Of a stretch of 64,000 bases of DNA, positions 54,701-63,020 are shown in pieces (position 1 is the first letter of the stretch; the number at the start of each line of letters is the position of its first letter). The notes under the pieces are model-generated. The model saw only the letters and a program-made list of their open reading frames with translations, was not told the origin of the DNA and did not search any database. The stretch is from Sarea resinae (lineage: Eukaryota): contig JAPEUD010000004.1 of NCBI GenBank assembly GCA_026026165.1, positions 372,001 to 436,000 on the forward strand, read 5' to 3'. A program made the position numbers and the translations under genes.

Positions 54701-56754
54701 TTGACTTTTCATGGATGCCAGCATGGCAATTTAGAGCATTTAATTTCGCCGATCCGATTTTAGTCGGAGTCTTGACCTGTAGCGGCCAAGATCGCCCCTG
54801 ATGCTGACTAAGCCTTCCTTGCAAGCGTCGTCTGGTCTAACGTTAGACCTCCGTGCCAGCGACATGGGGGACGGGAGAAAAGCGCACGACGCCTTTTGGG
54901 AATGTCTGCCTGTCCGCCCGCTCTGCCTTAGTTTCCTTCCTCTGAGCCTGTGTTTGCCTGGAACCTTCCCGGTGTGCGGGTGCTCCCCGCGAGACAGCAC
55001 AAGACGGCGAAAAGCATAAGGGTACAATACCCGTCTGGAATTTAGTTTTCTCTTTTTTTTTTTTTTTTGGCTCGAAGCTAACAGCGCGCGCTGCCTCTCA
55101 TGCCCGATAAAGAAATTCATCACCATCCCCATCCCCATCACCGTCACTGATCTACAGAACGAAGCGTTCCTGCACTTCTCGAGTGATTCTTCTCAGGTAC
55201 ACACGACAGCCCCTATCAGTTCAGACCGGTAAGGTGCGGGTAAGCTCAGGCTCGAACTGTGGCTTGATTTGGAAAACGGTACTTAAAACAACCTTACCCC
55301 TATCTCGGGACCTTGCGGCACCGCGCGCAGAGCACAAAGCCGGAGCTCATTTAGAGAATGATCCCGTAGATCCGTACGGTCGCTAGCTGATGCCAGCACA
55401 GCAGGAGAAGAAATCTTGTGATTCTTCTTCCAGGCAGGGAACGATGCCGTAAAGTTAGTCGCTTGTTGCCCATGAATGAATGCCACGAGCCGCTCGCTCG
55501 CGACTCACAACGCGCCCCGGCGGGCGGCCCCCCTCCCCCCAATGATCTCGCGCTCGACTAGGGTAGGGCCAAATTAGAGAGGCACCTCGGGTCAGCAACA
55601 AAGAGTACCATTTACCCCTAAGCCCGGGGCTGTCGGGTCCGCGTTGGAGACTTTCGCACACCATACCGTAAACACCGTAGCCGCCCCTTTCTTTCCCATG
55701 CTCTCTTGTCGGTCCTTCGAACACAGATCGCCGACCATACCAGGTGGGACATGCGTTTGGCCCCGGACGAGGAAAAGAAGCACGGGCTGTAGTTGGTCCG
55801 GCCATCTCGGCCGATGAGGGTCCGTCTGAAATAGTTAGTCGAAGGATCGGCAATTGGGCTTTGGTTTTTTTGAGCGGGTGGTTTGTGGATAGAGTAGACG
55901 TCGGGTAGGACAAGGTAAGGTAAGATGGCCAGGTCGGGGAATTGGAGAGCAGGTGATAATTTCGCTAAGATAAGCAAAGGCCGGTAGGTAGCCAGATGAA
56001 GGACTGTGGTTGAAGTTGAAGTGATATTCATTGATGGTGATCTCTGAGGATACGCACCTAGGGAAAGGAAACTTGAAGCACTTTCGTGCGTCACTACTAC
56101 GTAGTTAGCTCTGGGGATTGTTATCTCATCTACTTTACCTACTAAAGTACCGATCATTCACCTCATCTCATCTCACCTCATCTCACCTCATCTCACCTCA
56201 CCTCACTATTCATTAGCATTATCATAGTCCATAGATACCTGCCTTAGGCATCTACGCTGTAACATCATGATCTTCACCACCATCATCACGCCAAGCGCCA
56301 AGCGCCTGACACTCTTATCTGATATTCCTCTCCTTAGATCTGACGACAAACAGAGGCCGGAAAGGGCCTTCCAACATTTTTCTAGAGTTACAACTTAGGT
56401 TGACAGTAAAGGCAGCACGACAAAGGAGCATGGCAAGACAAAATAATCAAAAGGCACGGCATCATCAGCTGCAACACAGCTCCGCACTACATTTCCGAAT
56501 GCCTGAGCATCAGTAGCATTCCATTGCATTCAATTCCATTGCATTGCATTGCGTCACCTACAAGCCAGCCAAACAGGAAGAACACTGCTTTTCGCAAACA
56601 GTAAAAAAAATCGGATTTTCCCACGTCCCTAATCCGATCAAGAAAAAAAAGAGGAAAGAGAAAACCAGAGAAGATAGTAGAGAAAGCCCATATAATCCAG
56701 ATATTCTTGCCACTCAGCCCAAGCCGAGCCTTAGCTCCGAATGAGAACCGTTTT

Positions 56755-58794
56755 CTAGTTTGCCATGTACGTGCTAGAGTCGATGCCACCTTCGGGAAAC
56801 TCTCTGTAGGCGTTGTAAGTACGGATCCAAAGACCAGCGGGAGGGAAACTCAGTAACGTACGGAAGGGCAACTTCAAATCTCTTTTCAATGGACTTCAGA
56901 ACCTCTTCGTCTTGCTCGCTACTCACGAAGGAGATGCTGAGACCCTTGGTGCCGAAACGGCCAGCACGACCAACACGATGCAGATAGGAGTCCGCATCAC
57001 CGGGAAGATCGTAGTTGATGGCAAGGTTGATGCGTTCGATATCGATACCACGACCGAAGACGTCAGTAGCGACGCAAATACGCTTGTTGAATTCTTTGAA
57101 TTCCTTGTACCGTTTGATACTGCACGACTATCAGCCATCGCTTTGCGGAAGTATGGATGCTTAGTTGCCTACCGTTCTTCCTGGCTGACACCGGAATGCA
57201 CAGCAATGCTGGGGAAATTACACTCGCGGAGTAGCTTGTCCAATTCGGTAGCACGCATAGTACTCTTAACGAATATGATAACCTGGTTGAACTCAAGGCT
57301 GTCAAGGAGATCATTCAACTTGCGGTTCTTCTCTCCTTCGGCGAGCTTGATGTAGTACTGCTGAAGACCATGAAGGGTGAGCTTCGTCTCGTCGTCGACA
57401 TAGATTTCAAGAGGGTTCTGCATGAACTTCTTGCAAATTGGCCGGATCTCCTGCGACAACGTGGCGCTGAACATCATGACCTGCTTAGTCGAGGGCGTAG
57501 AACGGAAAATCTCCTGGACATCGCGGCGCATATCTTCCATAGGTCAGTCTGGGCCGACTACTTTGAAGTAGGACATCCTCTGAATAGTTCAAGCTTACCA
57601 ATCTGATCTAACATTTTATCGCACTCATCCAGGACGAAAGTTTTGATATTCCCCAGACGAAGACGCTTATCCCGAACGAGGGCGCAGAGTCTGCCGGGAG
57701 TTGCGACAATTATATGCGGGTGGGTGTCCTTGTTCGAAAGGATCTCAATGTCCTTCTGCATCGGAGTACCACCGTAGAAGACTGCCGTCTTGACATCCGG
57801 AAGATATTTGCTAAACCGGGCATATTCGTTCTTGATTTGATAAGCCAGTTCACGAGTGTGGCACATGACCAGAACAGAGGTCTCGCCCGGGACGGGGTCG
57901 ATTTGCTGTAGTGTTGTGAGGACAAACACGGCAGTCTTACCCAGACCGGACTTGGCCTGGCAGAGAACATCGGTACCGAGAATGGCTTGAGGGATGCACA
58001 CTTGCTGTACTGTAGGGATGAACGGGTTCGGAAGTTAGATTTGCTTCGTTCCAAGAAATTGCAGAATGACGAGCTTCGGGCGACACGTCCGTCCATCTCG
58101 CGCTAATGAGCATTCGAACAACAAAAACCGAACAGCAACGACCAGGCACTCCGATGCGCAACAATATCGTAAAGCAGGAGAAAAGCCGAAACAACGACTC
58201 CAACAACGCATATTTCGCGACAACCGAGCGACTGCGTCGCAGGTGGCGTGGGAAGTCTCTTGCTACAACCACGACAAACAGCGGAATCTTATCAATATGA
58301 CGTGGAGTCGTATAGAAGAAGCCAGTGACTCGACACGAGTATGGAAGTGCTGTCTGCTGCCGACGCTATCTGCAGCCGAAATACAGTATAGATGGGGCCC
58401 CCCGAGAGACTTCCTCCTGCGACCAGCGAGCTCGGTATCGACGCCTCTTCCTCTTTTAACGCGGCTCATTGCGGAGATGGACGGACGATGGTAGAAGGAT
58501 AGAGTGGATGAAAGCTTGGGGGAAAACTTATGACTGACCCTCCGATGGATGCTCGAATCCGCAGTCGGTGATAGCGCGGAGAAGTTCCGGCTTCAGCAAG
58601 AAGTCGCGAAAGCCCGTCGAGTGGATGCCGACATAACTACCCTTCTTATCTGCGCTTCCGCCAGATACCGTCAGATCGCCCTTCTTGGCCGCATCACCGT
58701 TGGTGGCCGCTGCAGCGGTGGTTGATGCTGCCGCGTCGGTCGTTGGCAGCTCCTCGTCCGAGTAGTCGATGAGATCCTCCTCTCCGTGAGACAT
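56755..58794 (-). CDS. sub2: ATP-dependent RNA helicase SUB2/UAP56 (TREX, splicing and mRNA export)
   Basis: Exons 58794-58539, 58009-57599, 57533-57173, 57119-56862 and 56803-56755. Motifs [64 protein letters not shown]. Confidence 0.97.
58086..58487 (-). ncRNA. Putative structured intronic RNA element in SUB2 intron 1
   Basis: Nested complementary segments: 58086-58099/58474-58487 (14 bp perfect), 58101-58111/58464-58473, 58223-58229/58430-58436, 58236-58243/58416-58423 and 58251-58260/58405-58414. Confidence 0.65.
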
Positions 58795-59576
58795 TGTGAT
58801 GGCTTAGAAGTTATATGTGGTTAGGATGCGTTGAGGATGAATGAGTTGGATGGCCGGGCGAAAACCGATATTGTCGCGGTTTCGTATTGATGGACTTGGC
58901 CTTGCTTGATGACAGATTATTGAGGGAACGGTTGAGTCGGACAATAGAGAGCCAAAGCCAATGGAGATTCTCGAGACCTTTCCGGATGTGAAGGTAGAAA
59001 GGAAGAGGAAGCGTTCTTGATGGGCAGTGGTGAGTAGGTTTGAAGACGCGAGATGGAGGTTGAAGCTTGATGAAAGAAGATGGAAGTAGAAGACGATTGA
59101 GAGAAAGCGCAGGAAAGATGACAGATGATTGGGAGGGAAGGGCGACGCGAGCATAGAAGTAGAGGGACTTTGCGATTTACGGAAAGTCTATCGTCAATAA
59201 AGTATTGAGTACCTGCTGTCGTTCAACCATGAATGCGGCTGAGTCGAATCGATCTAGACCGAAAGCGGACTGACAATCCAATTCTACATTGTTCTACTAG
59301 AAACCGTATTGCTGATACCGATAGATTACATAAGCCAGCACTGCTCTACAAAGACGTGGAACCTGGTGTCGGTGGAGCTGAGTTCGGCATCATCTGTGAT
59401 CGCTTTTCGAGGCTTCTGCACCGAGCCGCTGCGCCTTGATGTTTGTTTGATACTTCCAATGAAAATATACATTGAATTACTCCTCAAGTCTGAAGAACTG
59501 TACCGAGTGTTCCGAATCAATTCGATAAAAAATTGTTCCGATAGAGCTCATCCACCAGCCCTGATCGTTGATCACC

Positions 59577-60370
59577 TCACTGAAACCTGTCTGTCGCGGG
59601 CCCGACGCCTCCTATGCCAGAGGTATCCGCCAACGACTCTTTTAACTTCTCCATCTCCTTCACCAATTCCGCCTGATCATCACATTTCTGCAAACTTTCG
59701 AAGTCAATCATCAACGTCTTGCCGTTGCGAACTAGAAAATTGTGCTTGTTGACGTCCCCGTGCTTGAAACCAAGGCTATGCAGCTTCGACAGCGCTGCCT
59801 GGCATAGATCGAGGTCCTCCACCCCCGCATGCCGAGCGTCGGTGATCCTCTCGAGAATGAAGCCAATGGCTCGACCTTCCTCGAGGATGTGGCCGAGAAA
59901 TCTTGGAGGTGCTTGTACGCTGTCGTCTCGTCCTCGTACCAGGGGATTTGCCATCCGAAACGTGCGAATTTGAGGATGACGCTCGAATCGCCGAAGTGGT
60001 TGGGGCAAGTCGCCTCGTAGAGCCTGCCTTCGATCTTCTGTCCAATGGAGAGGTCAAGGTACTCGATTCGTAGCGGATGCCAAAGGCTCTGTATGCAAGG
60101 AAGGTCGACTTTGGAAGCGGATGCAAAGTAAGCTTCGCCGTTGTTCTTTTCATCCTTCGAGATCGTGGCAACGTTCCATTCTCCCGAAGGTAAAGGAGGG
60201 ATTAATGTCGGGAAGATTGGTCCAGAGCCCATGTCGTCATCATCGTAGATACCAGGGTCAATTTTAATGTATTTAATCGACTTGCCATTGACAAGGACGC
60301 GAAAGTCACTGACAGTGTTAGAATCTATCGACGCCTGCAGCAGCTGGACCTCTTGTCTTGTCGCTGACAT
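59577..60370 (-). pseudogene. Protein-kinase-like (APH/ePK-like fold) gene broken by a frameshift
   Basis: The N-terminal half starts at ATG 60370 and reads VILKFARF..YEDETTAYK. The C-terminal half is in another frame and reads PRFLGH..GFILERI..LHSLGFKHGDVNKHNFLV..LMIDFE. The switch is at about 59905-59915 with no room for an intron. Confidence 0.7.
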
Positions 60371-60925
60371 GTTTGTTGCGCTTTGAGAAATGCTCAATCG
60401 TGATGAAATTGGGGGGTATATACACGGCGTAGTCAAGGAACGGGTATAAAACTGAAGACAGAGAGCACGAGCAAGAAATTGACTGTAAGTGGAGATTGTA
60501 AAAGGATCCGCTAATAAGTGCGTGACAATTAAGGTGATATCCTTGACGAGATCTGGCTGATTGAAGGCATTGAAAGCAGAAGCGTGTGCTAGACTCCTTC
60601 GCCTTTGCATCTAAGCGCCGATCTAAGCGCCGAGTGTTGTAGTGCTAATCTTCTACGCAGTAGAGAGGCTCGACGAAAGATGAGCGAGACCCTTGTCCAG
60701 GCACCTCTATATTGCTACAAAAATCCGGCAATCATGTCGTTAGCGAGAGGACATGACACTTCTATAACTAAAATTCGTGCGAAAGACGTCTATTGTATTC
60801 GTTCATTCATCTGCCTGCAGGAGAATGAATACGCGTGAATGAGAAGATAGAATTACAATTAAAAACCGAAAAGTACATCTCTTTGTCAAGATATCTATTT
60901 GACTTGAGAAACATCTCGAACATCC

Positions 60926-63020
60926 TTAGAACCTCGCCTTCTTGGAAGCTAGTGTCCTTGCCCCGTTGATCTCGGTGCCCAGGTCGAGTACTCTGCGTTT
61001 GCGACTAGGTTCTGGTGACTGAGAAGATGGAGAGGCAGTTGCAATCGATCTGGGACTCTCGACAAGGACTGCAGATGGCGAGTTTGGCCCGCTGCCGACG
61101 CGTGTCTTTCCTGGAATGTAGCGACCGGTTGGTGGTCTTTGAAAGGTCTCAATGATTGGAGGCCGCTTAACGTTTGAAGGAGGAGGTCGCTCAACGTTTG
61201 ATGGAAGAGGCCACTTAACGCTTGAAGGAGGAGGCTTCTCAATGTTTGAAGGAGGGTGCATAGTACTATGATGATCTGTCGACTCAGTCAGTCAGGTATC
61301 AAGTATCAACAGCGAGTAGGTGAGGTTACCAGTGACTGCCGGGCTTGCGACCATCCTAGCTTGAGGTACCGGCCCCTGTTCAGTCTCAAGAGCTGGCGGC
61401 TGGTGGGCACCAGATAATTCCCTCTTAGGCCGAGCAGGGCGACGAGGTGGGCTTTCAGCACCCTCTGACGCTGCACAGTAGCCAGTTGGCTCACGGGTAC
61501 GATGAGGAGTCGTCCGAGCGGAAGTCCTATTCGAACTTGCGACCGCGGCGTTCTCAGAGGACCCTTTGTCTGAGGCCTTTCCGGCGAGGCTGAGTGGACT
61601 AGGCTTTGGTCGATCTTTATCGATCGCGTCAATGAAGTTCCAGGCATCCCTCCAAACTTTTGCGTTCAACCTCAGATCTATGTTATCCTTTCGTAAAGCG
61701 TCGCGAGATTGGCGTATATCCTTAAGCATCTGCTGCTTGGTCCGACTCTCCTGATACAAAGCGATCAACACAGCGACACAAACCACCTCCACAGGAGCGA
61801 ACTTCTTCGCATGGTCCCATCCACGATCCTCGAAAGCCATGGGATCCTGCTCGACTAGCTGAGAGAATGTGGTAAACACGTCGCGGTACAGACGCTTCGT
61901 GTTGTCATTGAGCGCATCCTTATTTTCGATGAACTTCCTAATGGATGGTGCAGAGGCCTTGAGGGAAGGGACCTTGTTTTGCATATCTGCCTTCAAAGCC
62001 TCATAGATCTGGGAGAAGCATGCTAGTATGATACGAAATTCTGCCGATCGCTTCCGCTCAATAAGACCCATAACAGAAGGGAAGTCGAGCTCATAAATCC
62101 GAGCAAATGATTGCCAGGGTCCTGTCGTGGCTCGCATCATTTCTGCTGTGTTCAGTGCCATACCCTTCTGAACTCTAGCGAATAGGTCCTCTTCTTGTTC
62201 GTGAGTGAGCTTTTCATACTCATAACAGACTATTCTTTTGTTCCGGAATGCAGCTTTGATAGTCTCAGGGAGTATTCTTCGGCTTGAGTGCCTACTGCCT
62301 GCCGCATCGATTCCTTCTTGGTAAAACCTACCCAATGTCGGTCAATCATATCTCAAAGATCAAAAGCCAAAGTGAAAAAACCAACCATTTGCGATCCCAT
62401 TTATCTTTAACAGGGATGTTTCCATTCATGAATTCGCGAATAGATGTGAGACGCTGCTTTCCATCTACACATATACGCTTTCGGCGCTTCACGCCATCAA
62501 TCACCGGAAATTGAATATTGAAAATGATGGGAGGTACGTAAAAATCCTCTGAATGCCATGAGTGCTGCTTTCGACCAAAGGTTTTGTAAGACTAACCAAG
62601 AAGCGAACTGATGAGCCCAGACATTCTTTCTTCTGACCAGACAACTCCACGCTGGTAGTTAGGGTTTAACTCGACCCAGGGCGAGTTGAGGATGTCTAGA
62701 AGAGCAAAACCAGTTAGAGATACGATCTCGAGATCGAGCGCCTGAGGCCAACGGAAGAGAAGATATACCAATAATGTCTTTGATTGAGAAATTCCAATTC
62801 GTCGGTTCTCCCAGCGGCTTCTTAGTAACAAATTCATTGGTTCTCTCTTCATCCTCACTCTCATCATCGGATTCGTCATAAAGATCATCCTCCTCTTCTC
62901 GGGCCTCCTTCTTGACTCGGACACCCTCATCAAGCAAAGGCGATGAAGGCGAGTCTGAATTGTCGTGGGTATCTCGATCACTAGTAAGACTAGCAGCACC
63001 TTCAAGAACCAAATCAGCGT
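60926..63020 (-). CDS. DUF262-domain protein (GmrSD N-terminal / ParB-Srx fold), 5' end uncertain
   Basis: Exons ~63020-62769, 62695-62597, 62548-62386, 62327-61330 and 61275-60926 join in frame. Motifs LNPNYQRGVVW..LISSLLEDFYVPPIIF, CVDGKQRLTSIREF, EDLFARVQKGMALNTAE. A possible mini-exon at ATG 63211-63196 is phase-compatible but has a weak GTTTTT donor. Confidence 0.8.
61158..61256 (-). repeat. 24-bp coding tandem repeat x4 (PPPSNV[KE]R-like) in the last exon of the DUF262 gene
   Basis: HPPSNIEK PPPSSVKW PLPSNVER PPPSNVKR. Confidence 0.8.

Follow-up and report, generated by a model that had tools for sequence, protein, structure and literature searches.

The window analysed here, a 64,000-nt stretch of the Sarea resinae genome (contig JAPEUD010000004.1), carries a SUB2/UAP56 gene on the minus strand at positions 56755-58794 (Table 1). 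The spliced model of five exons encodes an intact Sub2 protein of 444 residues. The product of exon 2 matched yeast Sub2 with an E-value of 1e-65, and structures of human DDX39B were matched as well. Judged by the summed tblastn score against about 50 named references, the protein is nearest to those of Sclerophora, Peltigera, Geoglossum and Xylona, which puts the host among the filamentous ascomycetes, close to lichen-forming groups. The initial annotation had counted four further introns in the SUB2 region besides the long first one; we found three, all short, and the joints of the last two are supported by contigs of one metatranscriptome. Among the 15 joints listed of 21 from metatranscriptome run X1 (contigs, share 0.17), none was a clean intron-1 joint, and part of intron 1 was covered at a depth of 2-3, to which DNA and other species may contribute, so that retention cannot be read from it. 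The intron-1 acceptor is a tandem TACAG-TACAG (58005-58012), in which splicing to the second AG, 5 nt further, would change the reading frame. The upstream neighbour (59577-60610, minus strand) reads as two overlapping frames, pointing to a small intron or a frameshift, and its second part contains HGDxN, which we take to be a kinase-like motif. Scans for tRNAs and bacterial promoters were empty or at chance level.

Table 1. SUB2 of S. resinae and the elements of its first intron (window coordinates).
Feature	Position	Strand	Remarks
SUB2 coding exon 1	58539..58794	-	85 codons and one base; protein end HPSE
SUB2 exons 2-5	57599-58009, 57173-57533, 56862-57119, 56755-56803	-	
SUB2 short introns	57534-57598, 57120-57172, 56804-56861	-	65, 53, 58 nt
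SUB2 intron 1	58010..58538	-	529 nt, phase 1, GTCAGT...TACAG
Donor GTCAGT, weak	58533..58538	-	GTYAGT in 83/83 listed loci with the P1 5' arm
In-frame TAA	58528..58530	-	codon 4 on read-through into the intron
5' spacer, pyrimidine-rich	58488..58527	-	mostly unpaired in the intron fold; length conserved
P1 5' arm	58474..58487	-	invariant core 58486-58476
P1 extension, 5' strand	58464..58473	-	pairs with 58101-58111 across bulges; partly conserved
Inner helix, 5' strand	58430..58440	-	pairs with 58218-58229; this genome only
P2 5' strand	58416..58423	-	pairs with 58236-58243; kept, with two-sided changes, in six relatives
P3 5' strand	58405..58414	-	pairs with 58251-58260; related helix in 15/44 listed introns
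Hairpin, UNCG loop and bulged C	58366..58391	-	in 11/44 listed introns; probability ~0.35 in own fold
P3 3' strand	58251..58260	-	
P2 3' strand	58236..58243	-	
Inner helix, 3' strand	58218..58229	-	
P1 extension, 3' strand	58101..58111	-	
P1 3' arm	58086..58099	-	invariant core 58097-58087
Branch motif CTAAC	58034..58038	-	predicted branch A 58035; 50 nt after P1
Acceptor CAG	58010..58012	-	

The length of intron 1 and its branch site (CTAAC at 58038-58034) are as first proposed, and the complementary blocks named in the initial annotation all lie where it placed them: the arms of the outer helix P1 (58086/58474), its extension (58101/58464) and the inner pairs (58223/58430, 58236/58416 and 58251/58405). 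All of these helices appear in the minimum free energy fold of the intron, with pair probabilities of 0.98-1.00. The longest stem found in 150 dinucleotide shuffles measured 11 bp and none of them (0/150) reached 12 bp, compared with the perfect 14-bp stem of the intron; likewise, a tiling of the window into 120 segments of 529 nt, which splits intron 1, gave no stem above 12 bp. The proposed large multi-helix fold holds for these particular helices, the 14-bp stem of which exceeds chance, but not for the intron as a whole, whose stability is marginal (z -1.45; 6/100 shuffles as good). The mean z over 22 of the 44 listed orthologous introns described below was -1.5. Because the whole intron is only marginally more stable than its shuffles, we place the signal in particular helices and not in global folding. 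One further block, ACCGAGC/GCTCGGT, is present in S. resinae but absent from the consensus fold of six aligned relatives. With P1 formed, the looped intron measures 127 nt, close to the roughly 130 nt first estimated and still more than twice the usual 53 nt. Rfam scans by E-value, run on window positions 55000-61000 and, with Rfam 15, on 12 orthologous loci, yielded neither a TPP riboswitch nor any other real match.

Orthologues were collected with a pattern for the exon 1-intron junction, which returned at least 118 metagenome stretches; the full intron was obtained in 77 of the 119 listed loci, the window included. We kept 56 introns of at least 380 nt with a GTYAGT donor, 50 of them distinct, and removal of six near-duplicates left 44 non-redundant introns. 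The 21 left out comprised L018, L047 and 19 introns of 39-259 nt; those proteins of the 19 that could be put on the tree fell outside the filamentous clades. The pattern excluded proteins with a valine before DCGF, such as those of Tuber, Pyronema, Orbilia and Yarrowia. Since the donor had been used in the filter, the comparison was repeated without it on 114 listed loci (redundant) with an intron of at least 140 nt: 83 carried the P1 5' arm, all with GTYAGT, seven had GTYAGT without an arm match, and the arm occurred in none of the 24 loci with other donors. In the listed filamentous-ascomycete orthologues intron 1 is 408-706 nt long with an unalignable interior, and the other SUB2 introns of the same loci span 46-90 nt (median 53, none above 90; 72 called). 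The named proteins nearest to the P1-bearing loci belong to Leotiomycetes, Dothideomycetes (Aureobasidium, Myriangium, Zopfia), Eurotiomycetes and Lecanoromycetes; one P1-bearing clade without a named neighbour is presumably Sordariomycete-like, and a further one sits on a long branch apart from these classes.

P1 is an 11-bp long-range helix, GUCCGUCCAUC/GAUGGACGGAC, nearly invariant across the listed filamentous-ascomycete introns. With each arm anchored by sequence alone, both arms were found at no more than two mismatches in 39 of the 44 listed introns, an anchoring on the consensus that favours conserved cases. Across these 39 introns 427 of 429 cells are paired, with G-U pairs and compensatory changes among them. 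The 20 deviating cells comprise 13 one-sided and 5 two-sided changes that keep the pair and 2 that break it; both breaks, and two kept cells as well, belong to L006 and L057, in which the helix ends early. Counted by eye, about 11 independent pair-keeping single changes stand against the 2 breaks (p 0.011 if half of all changes keep the pair), and one position reads U-A, U-G and C-G within a single clade. The outer helix is thus kept with pair-keeping changes across several fungal classes, and the conserved unit consists of this 11-bp helix and the donor region, not of the whole multi-helix fold. As for the five introns in which P1 was missed, four fold a divergent helix at the same place and the fifth is the yeast-like L010. 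The arm starts at a median of 52 nt after the donor and the helix ends at a median of 72 nt before the acceptor, while the enclosed sequence varies from 195 to 544 nt; the predicted effective distance from donor to branch site with P1 formed has a median of 102 nt. P1 almost certainly has a selected function. It is a real, conserved cis-acting RNA element of a known general kind, a long-range intronic zipper associated with unproductive splicing. Six loci (L007, L019, L064, L075, L039 and L051) show short simple-sequence expansions, either tetranucleotide units that lengthen both P1 arms or ATC units that fill the 5' spacer.

The inner elements of intron 1 are conserved at the level of clades, and the interior is not conserved across classes. 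P2 and P3 are kept in the window and six relatives, with 4 of 35 pairs changed on both sides; their covariation score was reached by 1 of 500 shuffles, the structure being derived from the same alignment. P2 changes freely among close relatives, and a P3-like helix occurs in 15 of the 44 listed introns. The hairpin with the UNCG loop and a bulged C, a pattern devised post hoc, was found in 11 of the 44 against 0.38 in shuffles and recurs in several classes, with 4 of its 6 pairs changing on both sides among members picked for pairing. A model of this hairpin detected six further loci at E <=0.001 among 41, with every match within intron 1 and two nearly identical to a training sequence, and nothing new among another 30 loci. 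In the window intron the hairpin competes with another helix and is about 0.35 probable. No interior motif of 7-9 nt shared across the introns stood out, and a C-box (RTGATGA) was present in only 4 of the 44 listed introns; with no Rfam match either, the intron does not look like the host of a box C/D snoRNA.

The donor GTYAGT is found at 83/83 arm-bearing loci compared with 2/69 well-placed control introns of SUB2; on the tree, its position +3 changed between C and T on at least six occasions without ever becoming a purine. Three codons in the last stretch of exon 1 (58539..58557, minus strand), TTC (Phe), CAT (His) and GAG (Glu), are fixed in 66/66 distinct listed P1 loci against 1/20 others, a comparison that is weakened by kinship and differing codon use; elsewhere in these genes His is mostly CAC (133 to 38). 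Read-through into the intron reaches a stop by codon 4 in 64/66 P1 loci versus 5/35 cases of the phase-matched intron 2, either as TAG from GTTAG, a donor that in this phase gives a stop automatically, or as a codon-4 stop after GTCAG. The early in-frame stop predicted for S. resinae is indeed codon 4, a TAA. In frame, a stop precedes P1 in 66/66 loci, compared with 5 and 20 of 66 for the other two frames, but the intron-2 control also has an in-frame stop within 50 nt in 27/35. Donor type against codon-4 stop gave 17/19 versus 17/47, a link that is not significant once kinship is taken into account (three independent pairs, p 1), a number of pairs that leaves the test little power. Early intronic stops are described as a general fungal trend (PMC4991832), which, like the intron-2 stops and the automatic stop of GTTAGT, counts against the feedback model proposed below.

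The P1 loop holds 34 donor-like sites where 50 are expected and 2 branch-plus-AG sites where 21 are expected, and the window intron has no internal donor as good as the true one. Because these internal sites are depleted, retention is likelier than use of an alternative site or a poison exon, and a poison exon or internal acceptor was rejected for the scarcity of branch-plus-AG sites. A decoy acceptor about 25 nt into the intron was rejected, its AG missing in several loci. Judged from these sequence features, intron 1 is probably under regulated unproductive splicing. The autoregulation first suggested for SUB2 survives two of its own refuting conditions, the outer helix being conserved in orthologous introns and the arms not being a dispersed element, and the conserved weak donor and the early stop lend some support to its splicing part. 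The precedent then invoked, yeast YRA1, fits a decay by NMD less well: its pre-mRNA is reported to evade NMD and to be removed through Edc3 (PMC2864733).

Several other pairings were tried around the donor. A hairpin across the exon-intron junction (exon GAYTG with donor positions +3 to +7) was predicted in 35/43 short-window folds and was no stabler than in synonymous redraws (mean -10.28 vs -10.26 kcal/mol; 22/43 better); it is absent from the full-context fold of the window gene. Swapping of a P1 arm to the donor or the exon end beat synonymous redraws in 32/38 and 26/38 cases, respectively, and was no better than shuffled arms for either partner (mean p 0.53 and 0.25); donor-arm pairing exceeded 0.3 in only 2/38 truncated folds. 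Masking of the donor by the C-rich spacer was no better than with shuffled spacers (12/38).

P1 resembles described elements in several respects without being any of them. One is the alpha-alpha' pairing of the Neurospora crassa NCU01977 TPP riboswitch, which likewise lies in a long intron between coding exons of filamentous fungi, brings the splice sites together and changes in ways that keep pairing; its alpha element, located about 50 nt downstream of the donor, forms a pairing that spans about 530 nt and promotes removal of the full intron (PMC3597705). The SUB2 intron, unlike NCU01977, has no TPP aptamer in the Rfam scans, both of its arms are fixed and no competing fold was found; the NCU01977 loop is described as holding alternative donors (PMC3597705), while the SUB2 loop is depleted of donors. 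In the yeast RPL7B zipper, too, a stem draws donor and branch point together in an intron that has a non-consensus splice signal, and it is a proposed target of negative feedback (PMC12311795). There, the branch point is weak and the conserved part is a competing protein-binding fold, whereas in SUB2 the donor is weak and the zipper itself is conserved. A conserved helix in a DEAD-box helicase gene is also known from the plant DEAD motif (DRH1/RH46), a proposed sensor whose opening leads to a non-coding RNA (bioRxiv 10.64898/2026.01.23.701338). As described, that motif is a local hairpin of about 20 bp hiding an alternative acceptor, for which sensing was shown, and its host belongs to another helicase subfamily and kingdom than SUB2/UAP56; P1 is long-range and a proposed sensor only. 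Hidden splice sites at P1 are a poor counterpart: the GTCCGT with which the 5' arm starts is very weak and not universal, and several clades lack an AG ahead of the 3' arm.

On these analogies we tentatively favour a model, with a little less than even confidence, in which the P1 zipper lets a weak intron be spliced, and its opening, probably by Sub2, leads to retention and decay in a negative feedback. Comparison indicates that P1 forms and keeps a distance of about 50 nt to both the donor and the branch site, with the enclosed part free to vary. The zipper would bring the weak donor near the branch site and render a long intron spliceable in a gene whose introns usually measure about 53 nt; we infer this splicing-promoting role because P1 is like the NCU01977 alpha helix and the RPL7B zipper. 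The unproductive outcome would be retention of the whole intron, with translation stopping within four codons and the helicase core lost. In the least secure step, Sub2, helped by partners such as Tho1, would act as the switch: high Sub2 activity would open or clamp the 11-15 bp helix on its own nascent RNA, splicing would fall and less Sub2 would be made, the frozen exon end and fixed arm sequence providing the site that gives the feedback its specificity. Two things make Sub2 the proposed opener: P1 is like the plant DEAD motif, and yeast Sub2 can unwind tailed duplexes of 13 bp, an activity that Tho1 stimulates (PMC12809590); the plant paper cites a 10-15 bp unwinding limit (bioRxiv 10.64898/2026.01.23.701338). 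By this analogy Sub2 may be the sensor, a role to which we give just under an even chance. A wider reading is more speculative, with perhaps one chance in three or so: a helicase-sensing switch conserved among filamentous ascomycetes, in which a sequence-specific long-range helix would let Sub2/UAP56 gauge how active it is and limit the splicing of its own intron 1. In Arabidopsis the total UAP56 transcript level is held when one gene is lost, in line with the favoured model, whereas the absence of alternative splicing in the UAP56 region tested there and the harmlessness of overexpression count against it (PMC3608606). P1 also ends a much longer nested rod, which a non-processive helicase might fail to open, and unwinding alone does not account for the fixed P1 arm sequence.

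In a rival explanation a sequence-reading protein, either an export adaptor (Yra1 or Tho1, for instance) or a splicing repressor, binds the frozen exon end, P1 or the UNCG hairpin and causes retention, which would tie Sub2 to the level of its partners and not to its own helicase activity. The arm sequence and three synonymous codons are fixed beyond the needs of pairing, while P2 changes freely, and CHTOP, an adaptor of human TREX, binds the exon and an intronic stem-loop of its own RNA with retention as the result (PMC5175361). Both CHTOP and YRA1, of the same TREX pathway, are export factors whose own intron limits their level, as proposed for SUB2 (PMC5175361, PMC2864733), and CHTOP has, as in SUB2, a stop at the 5' end of the intron and elements in both exon and intron (PMC5175361). 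They are, however, RNA-binding adaptors where Sub2 is a helicase, and among the three, as described, the long-range zipper is found in SUB2 only. Against the protein-reader explanation, CAUC, a motif that exon end and arm have in common, shows no clear enrichment in the spacer (34 vs 27.5, sd 3.5); we regard this explanation as rather unlikely, though the strongest competitor. A somewhat less likely alternative is that P1 is constitutive and merely offsets the length of an intron that is long for reasons of timing or expression enhancement, without feedback. Any long intron that is to be spliced efficiently would require fixed spacing and a depletion of internal splice signals, but the weak donor in every sampled lineage, the frozen exon codons and the fixed arm sequence would then lack an explanation.

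RNase III is known to cleave intronic stems in yeasts, and the rod might be the substrate of such a nuclease or might close an excised intronic non-coding RNA. Long nested helices, the clade-conserved inner elements and the stable rods of two yeast-like orthologues (z -6.5 and -6.8) would suit this proposal, which we hold to be improbable: neither the window region nor the 12 orthologous loci gave an Rfam match, the C-box is confined to the few introns mentioned, the interior is not conserved between classes, and the early stop points to translation of a retained RNA. It is very unlikely that P1 hides an alternative donor, the GTCCGT at the start of the 5' arm, whose exposure on opening would add about 52 nt with an early stop, the plant DEAD motif in mirror image. 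The arm does begin with GTCCGT in 56/66 listed loci and a stop always precedes it; yet GTCCGT scores above only 1 of 69 control donors, 6/66 loci have no GT there (2 of these 6 from shifted anchoring), and no contig spliced in this way was seen among the loci without an acceptor call. Finally, an origin of the arms as a decayed inverted repeat, a MITE or chance folding, for which the weak whole-intron z-score could be cited, is refuted by the conservation data and has a negligible probability, given that the element is single-copy in the genome, that the P1 arm 11-mer occurs at background frequency (42 occurrences vs 42 for the control) with a close inverted pair only at SUB2, and that P1 keeps the same place and sequence across several classes.

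The SUB2 element is apparently undescribed so far: the openly readable literature searched in full text contained no description of it and none of feedback on the Sub2/UAP56 level. It is absent from a text-term search and the table of 17 RNAs of Gao et al. 2021 (PMC8216456), whose supplement might list rejected candidates. For the orthologous human genes DDX39B/DDX39A, regulated intron retention linked to premature stops has been reported, as described there without RNA structure or feedback (PMC4737145). P1 would add a structured-RNA family that is found neither in Rfam 15 nor, as far as these are accessible, in the motif lists of two fungal screens, probably because 200-550 nt of unalignable sequence separate its two short arms; this separation suggests that further long-range elements await discovery in the long introns of fungi. 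Sub2/UAP56 belongs to the core factors of splicing and export and is the central mRNA-packaging ATPase; with 11 conserved base pairs, constant spacing, a weak donor and an early stop, the element offers a compact handle, open to direct tests, in model fungi. The helicase-feedback role, drawn from analogy, is an attractive proposal; if true, a helicase-sensing P1 would give Sub2 a natural RNA to unwind in vivo, one defined by its sequence.

Outside the filamentous clades, two yeast-like orthologues, L010 (1250-1802, 553 nt) and L047 (1123-1802, 680 nt), have a long intron at the same position with unrelated sequence. Both introns lack the P1 sequence and are far stabler than shuffles (z-scores as given above); L010 retains a GTTAGT donor with its immediate stop and has an outer helix near both intron ends. 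A third yeast-like orthologue carries an intron of only 79 nt at this position. The structured long introns of the first two suggest an older design whose sequence has since been replaced. Scans of viral and prokaryote collections gave one contig with a short intron at the SUB2 intron-1 position and otherwise nothing. This contig, L126 of a bacterial bin, is an AT-rich eukaryotic UAP56 gene with short introns and probably represents contamination of the bin; its intron is a sign that the intron-1 position is old. Among the orthologues, seven long-branch SUB2 copies (L014, L029, L046, L062, L072, L079 and L024) keep the long intron, GTYAGT and P1 and are possibly divergent paralogues under the same control; in the L014 group a methionine lies close before the conserved core, and the copies have a divergent N-terminal stretch.

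The P1 arms were also paired with this genome's U1, U2 and the 5' part of U6, giving only bulged duplexes of -10 to -12 kcal/mol, values that come without a chance control. Only the 5' part of U6 was matched because the gene is apparently split by introns: the U6 snRNA gene (L125:1501-1750; G000:C72 from 136273) appears to contain at least two, probably three, short spliceosomal introns with GT...AG ends and branch motifs. U6 introns are known in fungi. The main U1 gene lies on C75, and a second U1-like match, weaker at 39.9 bits, was found at G000:C71:147221-147358 (L123).
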